From UHGV virus genome UHGV-0106422: a stretch of DNA of 15,288 bases, one strand, 5' to 3'. Below are positions 1,302-9,491 of the stretch, piece after piece. The translations under genes and the position numbers were made by a program. Each line of letters opens with the position of its first letter. The stretch's first letter is position 1. This stretch comes from a virus. The notes below the pieces were generated by a model. That model did not search any database and was not told where the DNA came from. It saw nothing but the letters and a program-made list of their open reading frames with translations.

Positions 1302-1544
1302 TCAACCAACCTGCCCGGGCAGGGAGCGGAGACGGCGCATGCCGGTCATCGCTGTGGCCACGTAGCTCGCCTTTCGGTTCACCACCTCCACCCAGACTTT
1401 CACGCCTTCAACCTTCACCGTATAAGTCTCTTTCATCTTGCTTCGCCCATAGTCGCCATATGTTTGCAAGTGAGCTGCCAGCGCGATGTCGCATGCTTGG
1501 CGAGCTAAAGGTGATTGCTTACTTCCTCGATTGATCAGTCGCAT
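1302..1544 (-). CDS. Hypothetical phage protein (80 aa)
   Basis: ORF with AAGGAG RBS upstream of ATG at 1544; lies between the recombination module and xis. No recognisable motif. Confidence 0.5.
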   Translation of the reverse strand: MRLINRGSKQSPLARQACDIALAAHLQTYGDYGRSKMKETYTVKVEGVKVWVEVVNRKASYVATAMTGMRRLRSLPGQVG

Positions 1545-1582: not shown

Positions 1583-2701
1583 TCAGGCCACGTATTCCGG
1601 TTTCATATCCGCCAGGGTGATGCTGAATTGATCGTGCAGTTCATCGCCTAAGTGACGCTTTGAAGATGCAAGCATGCGCTCGGCTTCAGCGAACCGTTCG
1701 GCTGCATGCGGCTCGTCGGGCTGGGGCAGGGATTTAATAGCCTCCTCAACCTTGTTGCGTGCATCCACTAGGTAATAACGCTTTACGGCTTTGTTTTTCA
1801 GCTCGGTGAATAGTGCGGATCCCAGCGTAGCTTTCGCCGTTTCAATGTCGGCACGCAGCGATTTGGCGCTATCCACGTCCTGAGCAGATTCGATGCGTTC
1901 GCGGAAATCATCGGCAAGAGAGTCGACATTTACCGACGATTCCTGTGCGCTTTGCGTGGTTGTGACGGTGTCACCTGAGATATCAGCCAGGCTAACGCGT
2001 TGCGGCGTTGGGTTGATCTCTTTTTCTGTGCGCTGTTCAATCTCATCAGGGGTGTACACACCAAGAACAACTGCAGGGCAATATAGGCGCGCCCAGTATT
2101 TGAGTGCCAGATAAGCGATCTGCTGTTTCGGGTTTGATACCCAAAGTGGAGAATTACGTGTGATTACGCTGGAGAGGAAAACAGGCTCTCCCCAGGTGAT
2201 ATCACTTTCACCGCGAATAACGGCACCTACCCGTACCGACAGTCCTTGTTCATCAGCACTTTCCCAACCGCGTACCATTTCTTTCTTGTCGTACGTCCCG
2301 CCACCTTTCGCAGGCTTTTTAACGGTTATCTCGCGGCTGCTGGCACATTTCGACCAGTCGCCCTCGTACTCATAGTGAAAGCGGCCAACGATGGCGTTTG
2401 AGCTGGAGATCACCGCATTAACCAGTTGCGCTTCGTATCCCAGGACACCGTTAACCAGGTGCGTCTTTTGCGCCACGGCGTAAGGGTTCATACCCCACTG
2501 CATCGCCTGCATGATGATGGCCATGCAGTCTGCCGGATTGCCGCGGAGGTGCTCAGGCACCGTTACGGCTGCCTGTGCCATCAACCCGGCGACAGACTGA
2601 AGCTGGGTTAAAGCCTGCACGTTGAAAATGGCATTGCTGGCTGAGATCGTGTTTGGAGTCTGCTGTTCAGCGGTTACGATATTCGTGTTTTCCATCATCA
2701 T
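1583..2701 (-). CDS. Single-strand annealing protein, RecT/Bet family
   Basis: N-terminal segment GNPADCMAIIMQAMQWGMNPY... resembles the conserved Bet/RecT core (lambda Bet ...ALLIVANQYGLNPW...); a later segment SPLWVSNPKQQIAYLALKYW resembles the RecT ...GPWVTHWEEMAKKTAIRRL region. AAGGGGA RBS; starts 6 bp after the exonuclease gene stop. Confidence 0.75.
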   Translation of the reverse strand: MMMENTNIVTAEQQTPNTISASNAIFNVQALTQLQSVAGLMAQAAVTVPEHLRGNPADCMAIIMQAMQWGMNPYAVAQKTHLVNGVLGYEAQLVNAVISSSNAIVGRFHYEYEGDWSKCASSREITVKKPAKGGGTYDKKEMVRGWESADEQGLSVRVGAVIRGESDITWGEPVFLSSVITRNSPLWVSNPKQQIAYLALKYWARLYCPAVVLGVYTPDEIEQRTEKEINPTPQRVSLADISGDTVTTTQSAQESSVNVDSLADDFRERIESAQDVDSAKSLRADIETAKATLGSALFTELKNKAVKRYYLVDARNKVEEAIKSLPQPDEPHAAERFAEAERMLASSKRHLGDELHDQFSITLADMKPEYVA

Positions 2702-2706
2702 TCCCC

Positions 2707-5616
2707 TTATGCCTGAGTACGCAGAGCTTCAAGGCGGCGCAGGTCGAAGTCGTTCAGTTCGTCGGTGTAGTCAGCAGTGATTGGCGCTGGCCATTCACCT
2801 GTGTCGAATCCGGTTGCGATATTGCGCATCGCTTTGCGGTACTCGAGCATACCCAGCTCCAGTAGTTCAGCGGATGCCTCGATGATGGCGATCCAGTGGT
2901 AGTTCTCGTCTTTGTTGACGAAAATCCAGAAGAACTGATCCAGCGCTGCGGTTTCGCAGTACATAGCCGCGCTCAGGTGATAATCACGTTCAATAATTTC
3001 CCGGTGTAGCCTGGCGCGCAGGCTTTCCTGCTTAACATTCCACATGCTGATGGTTTTCAGGTCTGCACCTATACGCACGCCATCCAGGTCGATCTCAAGG
3101 TCAGGGCGCACACGAACTTCCAAGCCCGTCTCCTCGTCAAAACCAAAGTAGCTCACCTCAACGGCTCGGCTAGGGTGGGTCAGCAGCATGCCGGCGGTCG
3201 GGTGTGCCAGAAGCGCTTTTTGAATATTCAGCGCGGTGCTCAGCTGCTGGCGGGTGACCAGCACTTTTCCTTCCGGGTTATCGCGCCAGGCATCCAGCAG
3301 TTCGTCGGCAAATACGTCATCTGGTTTGACTGCCTTCACGGCCTGGATCATGTCTGCTTTGGTACCGGACACTTTCAGTGGTGCCGGTTTCTGTGCTTCC
3401 TGAGCCACAAGGTCAGGGTTGATGATTGCCAACTGCTCCAGCAGCGCGTCACGGCTGCCGCTGGTTTTAACCGGCGGCGGCAGGGTGGCGTTGTACTCTT
3501 TAATGCATGCCTTCATTGCCGTCGCCGTCTGCTTCTGGTCACCATCAATACGCTGGAAGTCAGCTGGCAGCGCCATATAGTTCTGTGCCGTTTCTTCCAG
3601 GTTAGCGCCAAGCGGAACCTGCGGCGGCAGGGTGGCGTTGTACTCTTCCAGTAACACCTTGATGTCGTCGGCAGACAGCAGCGCCGGCAGGCTGGCATTG
3701 TGCTCATCGATAAAGGCGCGCAGGGTCGCGGCCGTTGTGAATGCGCCTTCAGGGATCACCGGTTCAACGCTGAATTCTGCGTCCAGTAGTTCAGGCTGCA
3801 ACGCCAGCGCATGCACCAAGTTGCCCATGTCCAGCACCGCTGAGCGCTCTTTGACGATGGTTTTCTCTACGTGGCGCGCATTGAAGTACATCAGCGAAAC
3901 GCGCGCATCTTTCACCTGGGTTGAGCTGATGCCGTTGGCGGCGTGGTAAACCTCGTTTGGCAGCCCTTCATAGCGGCCTGGCTCGAAATAAGCGGGATAA
4001 ACAACAGCTGGTTCGTCAGATTGCGCTTCTGGCTCGGTTTGTGCTGCAACTGGTTCGGTTTGGCTTACAGAATCGCTATTTTTGGCGACAGAATCCGTAT
4101 TCTGGTCTACATCGTCCTTCTGGCTGGTATCTGACTCTTCACCAGACTCCAGACTGCTTTCGCCTGGCTGTACTTCATCACCAGCTTGTTTTTCATCACT
4201 GACAGTTTCTTGAACCTGCACATTGCTGGTGGTCTCCGTAGCCTTTTTCGTGCCATGAGTTGCTGAGTTCTGCAGCAAAGCCGTAACGTCGAATATTCCG
4301 TTGCCGACATTTTTAACCAGTTCTTGTTCGACTTTCTGCGGTTGTGCTGCCGCTTCCTCTGCGCGGCGGCGTGCTCCTTCTTCACGCACGCGTTGCAGGT
4401 TCTCTTCGTGAGTGCAGAAGGATTTGCGCGGAGACTCCTTACCTTCAGGTTGGGGAATTTCCTGTGCTGCGGGTTCAGCTTCATGCAACGGCAATAACTC
4501 GACCGCGGAATTGAACGCGGCTGTCATGGTCTGGTTAACAAATTCCAGGTGAGCGACAGGAGTTAAATGAATATTTTCCGGTGCGATACGTACCAGGTTA
4601 AAAATAGCCGTGCGGTTAACACCCAGAACGCCTGGCTGATTGCGCAGGATGTTGCTCCATGATTTCCATGGTTCTTCTTTTTTGGTCACGATTTCTTTAG
4701 CGCGACGAAGAATGCTGCCCGGGATCTCGAAGTGGTTGAAGTCCATAGGCAGAAGGGCACACGCAATCTCTAAATCGAGAGTGTCCAGTGTGTGGTGTGC
4801 CTCAGGTCCACGGTCAGTGACGTAACCGCCGTCGGCATTAGTGCCGGAATCAGTACGCTGCACACTACTGATGCGATTACCGGCGGCCCATTCACGCGCC
4901 AGGATGCCACGGTCAATGTAATCAGTCGCCGCCCACATTCTGGTGAAACGGAGTACCAGCGCGAGTTCGTGACGCTTGTCCTGGCTGAACACTTTGCGAA
5001 TGGCATCGGTGTAGCGCCACAGGTCTTTGGTGTCGTAACCCTTCACTTCCGGGCAGTTCTCAGCAGCTAACAGCAAGTTCTGGACGTAACTGTTATCAGT
5101 GTCCATCTCCAGCGCGCCGATAGCTTCGTACTCTTCATGGGTTACGTGGTGGCGCAGTTCGTCGGCGGTGAACTGGGAAAGCAGTTGCTTACGAAACGGC
5201 ATCTGCACTACCGGGTAGAGGGTTGAGTCGTCGTCGTGTTCGTCCAGCGTGATGCCAGCGGTTTCTGACAGCGTTGACTCAGTAGTTATGTGACTATCAA
5301 CGGTCTGAGCCGTTTTCTCGTCAGAGTTTTCAGCTGTGACTTTTGGCAGCCAGGTGCGGTCATCGTTCTGCAGTTCGTAGCGTTCGCACCAGGTGTAATC
5401 CACTGCGCCTTCTTCCGGCAGGTCGTCATATACCGGGAAATCGGTGCGGATTGGTTTGGCATAATCTTTACCGCGGCCAGTTTCTTCAATTCCGGCTTCT
5501 TCCAGTGCCACATCGAGTTGGAGATTGGCGCGCGCTACACTTTTCGCAGTGAACCAAATCACTGCATCTTTCTTGCCAGACTTCTGACTGGCTTTTATCA
5601 GATGGAAAAATTCCAT
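2707..5616 (-). CDS. recE: Exodeoxyribonuclease VIII (RecE-like), 969 aa
   Basis: N-terminus (…DAVIWFTA…FPVYDDLPEEGAVDYTWCERYEL…GNRISSVQRTDSGTNADGGYVTDRGP) closely parallels recalled E. coli Rac RecE; the C-terminal ~300 aa carries the nuclease-type domain. Immediately upstream of, and co-oriented with, the annealing protein. Confidence 0.85.
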   Translation of the reverse strand: MEFFHLIKASQKSGKKDAVIWFTAKSVARANLQLDVALEEAGIEETGRGKDYAKPIRTDFPVYDDLPEEGAVDYTWCERYELQNDDRTWLPKVTAENSDEKTAQTVDSHITTESTLSETAGITLDEHDDDSTLYPVVQMPFRKQLLSQFTADELRHHVTHEEYEAIGALEMDTDNSYVQNLLLAAENCPEVKGYDTKDLWRYTDAIRKVFSQDKRHELALVLRFTRMWAATDYIDRGILAREWAAGNRISSVQRTDSGTNADGGYVTDRGPEAHHTLDTLDLEIACALLPMDFNHFEIPGSILRRAKEIVTKKEEPWKSWSNILRNQPGVLGVNRTAIFNLVRIAPENIHLTPVAHLEFVNQTMTAAFNSAVELLPLHEAEPAAQEIPQPEGKESPRKSFCTHEENLQRVREEGARRRAEEAAAQPQKVEQELVKNVGNGIFDVTALLQNSATHGTKKATETTSNVQVQETVSDEKQAGDEVQPGESSLESGEESDTSQKDDVDQNTDSVAKNSDSVSQTEPVAAQTEPEAQSDEPAVVYPAYFEPGRYEGLPNEVYHAANGISSTQVKDARVSLMYFNARHVEKTIVKERSAVLDMGNLVHALALQPELLDAEFSVEPVIPEGAFTTAATLRAFIDEHNASLPALLSADDIKVLLEEYNATLPPQVPLGANLEETAQNYMALPADFQRIDGDQKQTATAMKACIKEYNATLPPPVKTSGSRDALLEQLAIINPDLVAQEAQKPAPLKVSGTKADMIQAVKAVKPDDVFADELLDAWRDNPEGKVLVTRQQLSTALNIQKALLAHPTAGMLLTHPSRAVEVSYFGFDEETGLEVRVRPDLEIDLDGVRIGADLKTISMWNVKQESLRARLHREIIERDYHLSAAMYCETAALDQFFWIFVNKDENYHWIAIIEASAELLELGMLEYRKAMRNIATGFDTGEWPAPITADYTDELNDFDLRRLEALRTQA

Positions 5617-5756: not shown

Positions 5757-6044
5757 TTAACTGACGGCTACGATCGCCTCATTCATAAAATCTTGCTTGT
5801 ATGTACGGTAGGTTCCCCAGCCGGCGTAATCGCTATCGCTGATTTTGAGTGCCAGCAAGCTGATCTCCTCAATGGCGCAGTGCGGGCAATCAAACTTGCC
5901 AAGCACATAGCCACCGTCGAGAATGACTGTTGTTTCACCGTTTGTAGTTGAGTGAATAACGCCTGATACTTTCTTCTCGCAGTTGAATGCAGCCACTTCT
6001 TTATTCACTGCTTTCAGGTTCATTTCGATTTTTACGATTTCCAT
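5757..6044 (-). CDS. Hypothetical early protein (95 aa) with a C..C-P-H-C motif
   Basis: Clean ORF upstream of recE in the leftward operon; no match to lambda Gam/Kil/CIII by eye. Confidence 0.5.
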   Translation of the reverse strand: MEIVKIEMNLKAVNKEVAAFNCEKKVSGVIHSTTNGETTVILDGGYVLGKFDCPHCAIEEISLLALKISDSDYAGWGTYRTYKQDFMNEAIVAVS

Positions 6045-6129
6045 AAAATCTCCAGTTGTTAAATTAAGGGTGTAAGAAGCCGCGCCAAATTAATGGCGAA
6101 TTTTTCATTTCATATTTCAGGACTGCTAT

Positions 6130-6288
6130 TTAACTTTCGTGCGCCATCTGGTCGTATTCAGCGCATTGCTTAGAGCAATATTCTTTTTCTTTCTGTGCCA
6201 GTTGCGAACCGTTGAGATAGAGCAAGGTGCTCTTTACTTCTGCGCCTTCTTCAACAGGCTTGTGGCAATAACCACATTCTTTTTTCAT
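6130..6288 (-). CDS. Small zinc-ribbon-like protein (52 aa; below the ORF-track size cut-off)
   Basis: Manual translation of the minus strand: MKKECGYCHKPVEEGAEVKSTLLYLNGSQLAQKEKEYCSKQCAEYDQMAHES; CxxC...CxxxC arrangement; AAGGACAGG upstream of the ATG; fills an otherwise empty gap in a tightly packed operon. Confidence 0.4.
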   Translation of the reverse strand: MKKECGYCHKPVEEGAEVKSTLLYLNGSQLAQKEKEYCSKQCAEYDQMAHES

Positions 6289-6321
6289 CACCTGTCCTTA
6301 AAGTGTTTTGGCAACTCTCCG

Positions 6322-6528
6322 TTAATGGCTGAGGCCATTCCCCAGACCGTTCAGATAAACTTCAACCAGCAAATCCTTGGTGTAAGTCATTTCTACGCCG
6401 CGATGCAGATACAAACGTCCGCGAGCGTTAGCTGATGCCGTCCAGGTTGAGTCTTTGTGTTTGACGAGCATCCCCGGCTGAACTGCGCCGCGGTTTACTG
6501 TCTGTGTACCGTAGTGCTGGTTTACCAT
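6322..6528 (-). CDS. Hypothetical early protein (68 aa)
   Basis: ORF with AAGAGGAAA RBS before ATG at 6528; same strand as the neighbouring small genes. Confidence 0.45.
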   Translation of the reverse strand: MVNQHYGTQTVNRGAVQPGMLVKHKDSTWTASANARGRLYLHRGVEMTYTKDLLVEVYLNGLGNGLSH

Positions 6529-6669
6529 GATTTCCTCTTGGCCTTATCGCGGCGAACGGAACGGTTAATACAAGACTTCAACGCATTTATTCAGTGTTTC
6601 AATGGGCGGTGGATGGCCGCCGGTTGTCATAAATGGGCAGACTCGAAAATCTGCCTATGTATGGCCGAT

Positions 6670-6690
6670 AAAAAACCCGCCGGAGCGGGT
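6670..6690 (-). terminator. Candidate intrinsic terminator (stem CCCGC/GCGGG followed by a U-run on the minus-strand transcript)
   Basis: Plus strand reads AAAAACCCGCCGGAGCGGG; on the minus strand this is a GC stem-loop followed by TTTTT, abutting the stop of the 6690..6932 gene. Confidence 0.45.
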
Positions 6691-6932
6691 TATTCACACT
6701 TTGCATGCCTGACCGGCTTTAATTTCCACTCGGTGGCCTTAAGCTCAATTTCCTTCCTGATTTCCTGATACGTTTTCACGGAGCCATCAGCGTTTTTATT
6801 GAACGGATTGAGCGTTTGATAAAACTTTTCCCGTCGTTTGCAGGCTTTACCGCATACGTCACACTTCCCTGATTTCTCAGCAAAAGTTGAGATCTCATCG
6901 AACCGAGTTGTTGTAATTCCACCCCATCCCAT
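6690..6932 (-). CDS. Hypothetical early protein (80 aa) with CDVCGKAC motif
   Basis: ORF with GAGGGTAAGG RBS; cysteine pair suggests a small metal-binding protein. Confidence 0.5.
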   Translation of the reverse strand: MGWGGITTTRFDEISTFAEKSGKCDVCGKACKRREKFYQTLNPFNKNADGSVKTYQEIRKEIELKATEWKLKPVRHAKCE

Positions 6933-6989
6933 CGCCTTACCCTCTGTCGTTACCCGCTGATGCGGGAGAAATGCTTTATCTATCAGCTT

Positions 6990-7202
6990 CTACAACTCAT
7001 CACGAATCTGTGAGAGTGTGCTGATCGCCTGGTAATGACCGCGACGCTGCTCTTCTGTTTTGAACGCACGCATATCGTCTTTTATCGATGCGATTGCCTT
7101 ATTCAGAACTTCCACTTGCGCTTCTTTAATCGCCTGTTTGCGTGGCTTCTGACGCTTCTTAGGAAGGTCTCTTAAACACGCCGGAATGTATGTCTGAGTC
7201 AT
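6990..7202 (-). CDS. Hypothetical basic protein (70 aa), first gene of the leftward early operon
   Basis: AAGAGGA RBS; Lys/Arg-rich N-terminal segment (PKKRQKPRKQAIKEAQ). Position and charge are compatible with an N-like antiterminator or other nucleic-acid binder, but no sequence match recognised. Confidence 0.45.
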   Translation of the reverse strand: MTQTYIPACLRDLPKKRQKPRKQAIKEAQVEVLNKAIASIKDDMRAFKTEEQRRGHYQAISTLSQIRDEL

Positions 7203-7905: not shown

Positions 7906-8838
7906 TTAAAGAACCGATTTAACAAGATGGTTTTTACGGTACAGACCTATGCGATCATTGTGAATCTCAGTAGTCTCCACTAAAAGAGAAACAATCTGTC
8001 CGACCTTGTGTTTTTTTTGTATTAAATCTAGCATTTCAATCGGATAGGAAGCCTTTAAATGTTCACCACCAACATCAAGCTCCAGCTTCCCATATTTGGA
8101 TAGAACGACCAGTTCGCCTGTAACCGTTTCAGTAATGGGAGGGGATGAAATGGTTGATGTAAGTCTACTCACCAAGTACTTAATTTTATTGGAGTCAATA
8201 GTTGCCACCTTGGTGCCATTACTAAATGGACCGGTCCAACTTGCATCAAATGTTAAGTTGTGTTTATCGCATTCCTCTACGATTCTCTTAAGGCTTACAG
8301 TGGAATTGTATCCAATTTCAGCGACGTGATTCATGAAGTTGTTGTCGTCATCGCTTAACAACAAATCGAATATGCCTTTTACAGCCTTGCTGGGTACTGT
8401 TTCTACTAATTCTGCTATTCCTGTAGAGAAGGTGACGCCCAATTTTGTAGACCCAGGGGATAAATCAGCCAGCCTGAGGTTTAAGGAGCTTTTCACGTCG
8501 TAGGGAACTTTTTTTGAGTCCTTGCCTGAGGCAATTTTGTGTGTTGCTCTTTGTATTAGCGCTGCAAGATTTGTTGAAATAGCCCCAAGCAGCTCTAAAG
8601 GAATAGAGCCAAAGTCAACCTCAGAGCCTTTCAGCCGCAGCTCAAAAAAATCGATAAGTGGGTGCCGACTATCTTGCTTTAATTTTTCGGCCTTCAAATC
8701 GCTCAGATGAGAATCCATGGAGCGATAAAGAAGCATGTCAGCAAAGGACCTGGTTTTGTTTTGCTTCATTGCATCGACTTCTTTTTGAATGAAATCAATG
8801 CGTTTATCGCAATTTTTAAACATTGATTTATCATTCAT
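7906..8838 (-). CDS. Hypothetical protein (310 aa), distal gene of the cI-linked AT-rich cassette
   Basis: Start ATG overlaps the stop of the upstream gene (ATGA, translational coupling); visibly AT-richer than flanking phage core genes; no recognisable catalytic motif or TM segment by eye. Confidence 0.7.
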   Translation of the reverse strand: MNDKSMFKNCDKRIDFIQKEVDAMKQNKTRSFADMLLYRSMDSHLSDLKAEKLKQDSRHPLIDFFELRLKGSEVDFGSIPLELLGAISTNLAALIQRATHKIASGKDSKKVPYDVKSSLNLRLADLSPGSTKLGVTFSTGIAELVETVPSKAVKGIFDLLLSDDDNNFMNHVAEIGYNSTVSLKRIVEECDKHNLTFDASWTGPFSNGTKVATIDSNKIKYLVSRLTSTISSPPITETVTGELVVLSKYGKLELDVGGEHLKASYPIEMLDLIQKKHKVGQIVSLLVETTEIHNDRIGLYRKNHLVKSVL

Positions 8839-9314
8839 AAAAAAATCCTCACTAACCCTTTCGGGTTTTCACTGCGATCAAAACCAAACCAACCGCGCCA
8901 GTAGCTACGCCAGTACTCATAATCATAGTTAGGGTCATCTAAATTCTTCATGAGTAGTAGGACATCAATTTTGTAGTTTTGTTTGATGTAGTTTCGGTCA
9001 AGCAAATTATCGACGCGGCCCCGAAGCATGACAGGTATTGAGTTTATATTGCTATAGTCACATACCAACAAAATATCAATATCATCAGGCTCTGGTTTAG
9101 ACGTGGTGTATGAACCATCAACCCATATTTCTGTAAAACAGCCATATTGAGCAGATAATTCTCGAATAGATTCGAGTAGCTGTATAAAATTACAGTATAG
9201 CATGCCTCGCCTGGATGATGAAGGAAAGCAATCGACACAATACGATTTTAATCCAGCTTCATCCATGTCATGGAACCCTGGCTCAAACAGGGGTGGGTAA
9301 TTAATTTTATCCAT
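8835..9314 (-). CDS. Small nucleotidyltransferase-fold-like protein (~159 aa from ATG 9314; track shows a GTG-initiated 175 aa form to 9362)
   Basis: Motif ...EIWVDGSYTTSKPEPDDIDILLVCD... fits the minimal Pol-beta-type NTase signature (G-S, about 9 residues, then D-x-D, followed by hydrophobics). AAGG 6 nt upstream of ATG 9314; none before the GTG. AT-rich. Confidence 0.6.
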   Translation of the reverse strand: MDKINYPPLFEPGFHDMDEAGLKSYCVDCFPSSSRRGMLYCNFIQLLESIRELSAQYGCFTEIWVDGSYTTSKPEPDDIDILLVCDYSNINSIPVMLRGRVDNLLDRNYIKQNYKIDVLLLMKNLDDPNYDYEYWRSYWRGWFGFDRSENPKGLVRIFL

Positions 9315-9491
9315 AAAAAACCTTGCTATACATTTGTTTTTTTTTATTAAAAATCTAACCACCGAAATGGTGACGGCAAGATGTTACATGGGGTTACAAT
9401 CAGCCAATACACCGCATTAAATAATTTTTTCACCAGCTATGCGCCGACCAGAACACCTTGCCCATCACCCAAACGTCTCATCAGGCCACCG

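Follow-up and report, generated by a model that had tools for sequence, protein, structure and literature searches.

RecE–RecT-type recombinases pair an exonuclease with a single-strand annealing protein, and here we analyse such a gene pair, recE and recT, in a 15,288-nucleotide (nt) stretch of the virus genome UHGV-0106422 (hereafter, the window). Among its described relatives, the orthologous recET genes of Gifsy-1 and -2 are repressed in lysogens; when derepressed, they genetically replace RecBCD-dependent recombination, and their activation by mutation suppresses the recombination defect of recB mutants (PMC3121763). The lambda Red system follows a similar plan, with a 5′–3′ exonuclease and an annealing protein, Redβ, that joins a DNA-binding core to a small helical C-terminal domain; it differs from the window's module in the size and quaternary structure of the exonuclease, and its gene order is reversed. 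Redβ's C-terminal domain binds lambda Exo and, via an overlapping site, the host single-stranded DNA-binding protein (SSB), and RecT binds RecE but not lambda Exo (PMC11611040). Within the RecT/Redβ superfamily, an EHAP1-like group of annealing proteins has been classed as a subgroup (Iyer et al. 2002, cited in PMC8093625). A 2026 paper classes RecT C termini as compact helical bundle, disordered or 'extended helical bundle', finds that all three classes support RecET recombination and also points out a UvsW.1-like similarity (PMC13490951).

The locus in the window very probably serves a phi80/HK225-like lambdoid (pro)phage as its early-left recombination module, encoding a two-component recombinase of the Gifsy/mEp237 type. 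The two minus-strand open reading frames (ORFs) from which an earlier note on this DNA had proposed a RecE–RecT-type recombination module were confirmed, both as genes by strong homology, and domain annotation (PF06630 and PF12684 in the exonuclease, PF03837 in the annealing protein) bears out the proposal. The exonuclease and annealing-protein genes are adjacent, co-oriented and separated by a 5-nt gap, in a lambdoid early context:

2707..5616, minus strand: recE-family gene, 969 amino acids (aa); ORF matching PF06630, PF12684 and PHROG 607, with 99.7% nt identity to mEp237 gp31.
1583..2701, minus strand: recT-family gene for a single-strand annealing protein, 372 aa if read from the first ATG; ORF matching PF03837 and PHROG 561.

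By homology, the product of the first gene is a 5′–3′ double-stranded DNA (dsDNA) exonuclease of the exonuclease VIII family, Gifsy/mEp237 type. The second gene opens with three consecutive in-frame ATGs (2695–2701), of which the third (2695) is best spaced from a GGGG Shine–Dalgarno sequence. The recT product is 370 aa (1113 nt) in both mEp237 gp30 and the RefSeq annotation, and translation probably starts at the third ATG, giving 370 aa.

Phage mEp237 (NC_019704; gp31/gp30) matches the 4034 bases that hold both genes at 99.7% nt identity, with the same gene lengths, order and neighbours (DUF4060, xis and int) and essentially no difference inside the two genes. The same stretch is 99.9% identical to chromosomal prophages of Escherichia coli; it finds matches in 112 of 5426 complete E. 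coli genomes, with at least 80% coverage in 58, and the prophage genes are annotated as 'RecE family exodeoxyribonuclease' and 'RecT family recombinase'. Phage HK225 is 95% identical across 83% of the length of this stretch. The same pair in the same order is found in HK225, Gifsy-2, Klebsiella phage ST974-OXA48phi18.2 and PHB10, with a RecT of 361–371 aa and a RecE of 961–1129 aa. Across these four, the RecE nuclease domain, including an insert described below, is the best-conserved segment (80–97% identity) and the C-terminal tail of RecT is 67–99% identical, whereas the N-terminal and middle regions of RecE are the mosaic parts (24–97%). Gifsy-2 (STM1009/STM1008), with a RecE of 961 aa and a RecT of 369 aa, shares the architecture of the window's pair: identity reaches 75% in the RecT core, 68% in the RecT tail, 89–93% in the RecE nuclease domain and 80% in the insert, but falls to 44% in the N-terminal domain and 41% in the middle of RecE, and the RecT linker is not alignable. 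On this full-length similarity, tail included, and on that to homologues named 'enterohemolysin', we assign the RecT branch of the window to the EHAP1-like subgroup (Gifsy type). Published phage genomes already annotate the gene pair, which is therefore known, and the tail is the normal, conserved form of its RecT branch.

From its gene order, the operon would be transcribed leftward after induction. Homology and conserved catalytic residues suggest that the C-terminal PD-(D/E)xK nuclease of RecE resects the 5′ strand at double-stranded ends. RecT would then coat the 3′ single strand and anneal it to a complementary strand, leading to RecA-independent recombination and break repair, as its family and the genetics of Gifsy recET indicate.

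Rac recE and recT (b1350/b1349), taken from E. coli K-12, served as the reference for a finer comparison. The Rac pair resembles that of the window in its two-gene logic, gene order, Pfam families and nuclease catalytic residues. It differs in that Rac RecE has a 34-residue loop and no counterpart of a 168-aa insert, and in that Rac RecT is 269 aa long with a tail of about 25 aa. The RecE of the window divides into five segments:

4507..5616, minus strand: N-terminal domain, aa 1–370, mosaic part; 27% identical to Rac RecE aa 7–351.
3988..4506, minus strand: acidic low-complexity middle, aa 371–543, hypervariable; isoelectric point (pI) 4.3, 21% acidic residues.
3775..3987, minus strand: nuclease domain, first part, aa 544–614, with His602; 38% identical to Rac RecE 596–659.
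3271..3774, minus strand: 168-aa insertion in the nuclease domain, aa 615–782; no Rac counterpart in alignments.
2710..3270, minus strand: nuclease domain, second part, aa 783–969; DUF3799, with PD-(D/E)xK residues Asp839, Asp852 and Lys854.

Residues 4–181 match Exonuc_VIII (PF06630; 78.7 bits against a cut-off of 25, E 7e-22) and residues 789–944 match the PDDEXK family DUF3799 (PF12684; 40.1 bits against a cut-off of 26, E 4.6e-10), alongside a strong match to PHROG 607 (exonuclease). His602, Asp839, Asp852 and Lys854 align with His652, Asp748, Asp759 and Lys761 of Rac RecE, and the second nuclease part matches PDB 3H4R with RPD and DxK aligned; the role of Rac His652 is confirmed in a review (PMC11611040). 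In related loci, the two nuclease parts are 72–100% and 70–100% identical to those of the window. The N-terminal domain ranges from 31% to 99% among related loci and the middle region from 24% to 97% among phage relatives; in HK225, the N-terminal domain differs in its first ~90 residues and is 66% identical beyond them. The earlier note had described the N terminus as tracking Rac RecE closely, which overstates the likeness: identity is 27–28% for the ~370 residues at the N terminus and, for the two nuclease-domain halves, 38% and 22%, and against the exonuclease VIII equivalog model (NCBIfam NF007259) the protein scores 459.6 bits, far below the cut-off of 1269. By these scores, it is a member of the exonuclease VIII family and not the same protein as Rac RecE.

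Alignments on either side of the 168-aa insertion join Rac residue 659 to residue 693, and the disordered loops of Rac RecE, residues 665–698, are thought to capture the dsDNA substrate (PMC11611040); the insertion thus occupies the position of the DNA-capturing loop. It consists of repeated helix–loop–helix units of ~35–50 aa each. The '(E/K)EYNATLPP'-type heads of this motif are encoded by a 32-nt direct repeat in three copies (3469–3500, 3616–3647 and 3676–3707), of which the second and third share 97% and 75% identity with the first. The copy number of the unit varies, since two relatives (loci L033 and L045) carry a single unit only. Speculatively, the repeat insertion replaces the DNA-capturing loop of Rac RecE and probably helps to hold the duplex end, as an enlarged clamp.

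RecT is built from three parts:

2018..2587, minus strand: annealing core, aa 39–228; PF03837, 125.5 bits against a cut-off of 24, E 2.5e-36.
1928..2017, minus strand: flexible Ser/Thr/Gln-rich linker, aa 229–258; low predicted local distance difference test (pLDDT) scores, poorly conserved in the alignment.
1586..1927, minus strand: C-terminal helical-bundle domain, aa 259–372; invariant TELKNKA..RY and L.DM.PEY motifs.

The core retains residues that are invariant across 46 distant relatives. The earlier note had called the annealing protein more diverged from Rac RecT than its partner is from Rac RecE, and this proved an understatement: BLASTP finds no similarity between the two RecT proteins (E = 22), although both match PF03837. 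It had also described a long acidic C-terminal extension, and this was found as well: 144 residues follow the Pfam core, compared with about 25 in Rac RecT, and they are mildly acidic (pI 4.9, net charge −8). The match to PHROG 561 (RecT-like) spans residues 2–371, so the PHROG 561 profile includes the tail. An AlphaFold model of the whole protein, built with an alignment of 38 relatives, has a moderate-confidence core and a helical C terminus (overall pLDDT 69), with aa 214–256 below 50 and predicted to be disordered. Residues 250–372 modelled alone (33 sequences) gave a pLDDT of 94.7 and a predicted template modelling score (pTM) of 0.83; this model contains four helices, including one of 34 and one of 39 residues. 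These models show the tail as an elongated, folded bundle of helices attached by a flexible tether, with no specific relative among solved structures. Solved RecT/Redβ structures have a Rad52-like β–β–β–α core fold. Foldseek found no significant match in the PDB for the moderate-confidence RecT model, and a sequence-profile search found no solved relative.

Such tails are widespread. The 120 best RecT homologues out of 5019 are 340–375 aa long with 99–100% query coverage, save one 309-aa fragment; their hosts include Escherichia, Citrobacter, Salmonella, Enterobacter, Leclercia, Lelliottia, Hafnia, Buttiauxella and Erwinia, among others, and many are named 'enterohemolysin' or 'Gifsy-2 prophage RecT'. 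The tail is kept in 38 of 38 aligned relatives (70–92% identical; Citrobacter, Salmonella, Erwinia, Enterobacter and others), and a search with the tail alone returned RecT proteins and fragments of them, save one partial entry annotated as DUF4060. An exhaustive search of representatives at 50% identity yielded 5246 RecT relatives. The 143 nearest with a complete core extend a median of 122 aa beyond it, mostly 75–175 aa, and 138 tails fall into 77 sequence clusters, with the window's tail type in 13. Given these lengths and this diversity, a long, acidic, helical and sequence-variable C terminus is the norm for this branch of RecT. The pair in the window is a standard, widely conserved RecET pair that carries the same C-terminal extension as its relatives, the very outcome that the earlier note had named as refuting its reading.

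By analogy with Redβ, the tail is most likely a coupling domain for the partner RecE and/or host SSB: the 110-aa helical bundle, on a linker of ~30–45 aa, would tie RecT to one or both, and the suggestion in the earlier note of an additional interaction surface is plausible on the same analogy. Three observations indicate coupling to the exonuclease. In PHB10, the RecT core has been replaced (51% identical), while the tail (90%) and the RecE nuclease domain (89–93%), which flank the core on the DNA, both stay at ~90% identity. Among 63 distinct profiles of loci, tails closer in identity to that of the window tend to go with nuclease segments that are closer too (Spearman 0.53–0.68), whereas the RecT core does not follow the nuclease (Spearman −0.22 to 0.07). 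Finally, the type of tail changes along with the type of exonuclease. In a second set of IMG/VR loci (L088–L167), RecT cores are 47–56% identical to that of the window and, although a linker and an acidic helical tail are always present, the tails are of other types (67–169 aa, unrelated sequence); the partner is a minimal RecE-like exonuclease of 272–307 aa, made up of the nuclease domain only (DUF3799), with a 4-nt gene overlap.

These observations raise a more specific reading, which we advance tentatively and which, taken as a whole, is rather unlikely: that the variable C-terminal domain is what fits each RecT to the exonuclease it belongs with (the 140-aa bundle to the large insert-bearing RecE, an ~87-aa tail to the minimal RecE), and that the RecE repeats, variable in copy number, act as a tunable duplex-end clamp. 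Several results weigh against the main interpretation above. When all pairs of loci are compared, the Mantel correlation with the nuclease core is modest and the lead of the tail over the RecT core small (r = 0.48 and 0.40; with the RecE insert, 0.40 for the tail and 0.18 for the core), and all these covariation comparisons are confounded by shared ancestry. The covariation of tail and nuclease, strong relative to the window and modest in the all-pairs Mantel test, is no proof of coupling. The tails of L045 (86% identical) and L033 (67%) occur with a single-unit RecE insert; the tail is therefore independent of the full insertion, and a strict docking of tail to insert is weakened. Homology between the window's tail and the commonest other tail type was found in the expected register without reaching significance (hhalign E 0.065, probability <1%); a shared ancestral three-helix module may underlie the tail types. 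SAP (PF02037), the only Pfam family ever to appear for the RecE insert, stayed below its cut-off in every attempt (12.9–14.3 bits against 23.9, E 0.03–0.09); it amounts to a sub-threshold hint, and the SAP-domain assignment was rejected. In the literature searched, no experiments on this exact RecE–RecT allele were found, and a search on mEp237 returned only unrelated DOI strings.

Alternatively, the tail may serve mainly in host coupling, binding either SSB, by its acidic C-terminal peptide, or a different replication factor of the host, and not RecE, and so bringing RecT-bound single-stranded DNA to the lagging strand. We regard this as possible, if on the unlikely side. All hosts are Enterobacteriaceae, the SSB tails of which are alike, and the invariant motif TELKNKA..RY contains a basic patch (K302, K304 and R308). 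Moreover, the SSB site of Redβ overlaps its Exo site (PMC11611040), and the ETfinder paper proposes that extended bundles are extra surfaces for SSB or host factors (PMC13490951). However, a conserved SSB peptide as the target would predict less variation than the 77 clusters among 138 representatives, and the tail type switches together with the exonuclease type.

A role of the tail in RecT self-assembly, through control of filament length or capping or through autoinhibition of single-stranded DNA binding, and without any partner, is improbable. A spectrin-like helical bundle on a flexible tether would suit such a role, and sub-threshold structural echoes of UvsY and UvsW.1 point in the same direction. 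Family members nevertheless anneal without such a domain: in the DNA-bound reconstruction of LiRecT, residues 34–244 alone are visible, and the remaining C-terminal stretch is just 26 residues (PMC11611040).

The earlier note had taken the divergence of RecT as a possible sign of module shuffling. Spelled out, a Rac-like RecE would have been joined to a foreign, non-cognate annealing protein, with the tail compensating as a new interaction surface. This is very improbable. It draws on the detectable similarity of RecE to Rac RecE where RecT has none to Rac RecT, but the RecE nuclease domain itself is just 22–38% identical to that of Rac. Both genes have diverged from Rac, so the module in its entirety is of a different lineage (Gifsy/EHAP1-like) and not a hybrid. 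In a sample of 80 IMG/VR loci with a RecT 70–100% identical to that of the window, the 140-aa tail is present in all 80, and a large RecE (842–1235 aa; nuclease domain 70–100% identical) lies upstream in 74 of the 74 loci counted, for which an upstream ORF of 200 aa or more was required. Conservation of the pairing thus extends over these 74 viral loci, several named phages and at least 58 E. coli genomes, and for this pair the claim of shuffling finds no support.

An intact recE is absent from three or four of the IMG/VR loci, which look decayed or rearranged. L044 and L046 (RecT at ~5883–7098 in L044) and L085 (RecT at 5953–7113) carry the same RecT and tail with no intact upstream recE, and L085 retains only a short C-terminal recE remnant; these three look like decayed or rearranged prophages.

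On a deeper scale there is a point in favour of exchanged partners: the minimal exonucleases of L088–L167 (272–293 aa) are 47–52% identical to the Rac RecE nuclease domain, closer than the RecE of the window, and they adjoin RecTs of the window's branch, which show no BLAST similarity to Rac RecT. These pairings suggest that RecE-type nucleases have been combined with two very different RecT branches in evolution. By contrast, swaps at the site occupied by the pair involve whole modules and not single partners. Phage phi80 (L168, NC_021190.1 24900–32500) shares int, xis and DUF4060 with this phage group, and between DUF4060 and kil it carries a lambda-type gam-rec-exo set and agt instead of recE–recT; the entire recombination module is swapped here as one cassette. 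As read from the alignments, shuffling has its joints inside recE (where the nuclease domain meets the N-terminal two thirds), at the boundary of RecT core and tail, and around the whole module.

That the protein is an 'enterohemolysin' with a lytic or membrane-active tail, as the name given to close homologues by several sources implies, is exceedingly unlikely, given that the N-terminal two thirds are a bona fide RecT core, that the gene sits in a recombination operon right after recE, that the tail is soluble, acidic and helical without a hydrophobic segment, and that the EHAP1-like group is a subgroup of the RecT/Redβ superfamily (PMC8093625).

The surroundings of the pair fit the assignment to a lambdoid phage. 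The gene order in the window is int, an 80-aa ORF, DUF4060, recT, recE, small early-left genes, S24 repressor, cII, O and P, and the 80-aa ORF occupies the xis position of relatives. Judged by this order and these matches, the window in its entirety is a lambdoid early region of phi80/HK225-like type and mosaic make-up; mEp237 covers 53% of it, and the remainder is mosaic relative to that phage. An integrase truncated by an insertion sequence, as in strain MSB1_9D, was considered and rejected, as the window just starts inside int. Downstream of recT lies a conserved neighbour:

1302..1544, minus strand: DUF4060 gene; PF13269, E 1.5e-34.

In mEp237, HK225, the Klebsiella phage and phi80, a DUF4060 gene takes up the same position, and Gifsy-2 has a hypothetical gene of similar size there. 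A gene of this size follows recT directly in HK225, Gifsy-2 and PHB10; in the Klebsiella phage, two extra genes lie between. Between the recT stop and the DUF4060 start, at ~1553–1570 on the minus strand, is a hairpin with a perfect 7-bp GC-rich stem (GGGAGGG GUAA CCCUCCC). It has no U-run and lies just upstream of the DUF4060 Shine–Dalgarno sequence, and, given the local composition, it folds with an unremarkable energy (z = −0.72).

PADLOC returned no defence-system match for RecE or RecT. Elsewhere in the window, between the early-left genes and the S24 repressor, two overlapping low-GC genes (7906–9362, minus strand; GC 0.40–0.42) encode a 310-aa product without a Pfam match and a 175-aa DUF6932 protein. 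In PADLOC, the two match a candidate pair for anti-phage defence, PDC-M63B (E 7.5e-45) and PDC-M63A (E 2.4e-41), and form a probable prophage-borne defence cassette.

As a discovery, the locus is of small value: its genes are annotated, Gifsy recET has been studied genetically and extended RecT C termini are present in the recombineering literature. What is documented here is that RecTs of this branch as a rule have long C-terminal domains of variable sequence and that tail type goes with exonuclease type, together with a RecE lineage in which a repeat insertion lies at the DNA-capturing loop. Anyone choosing or engineering RecET pairs for recombineering in Enterobacteriaceae could draw on these points. 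If the tails do match each RecT to its own exonuclease, they could be used to predict or re-engineer RecE–RecT compatibility, which would be of moderate interest to recombineering specialists.

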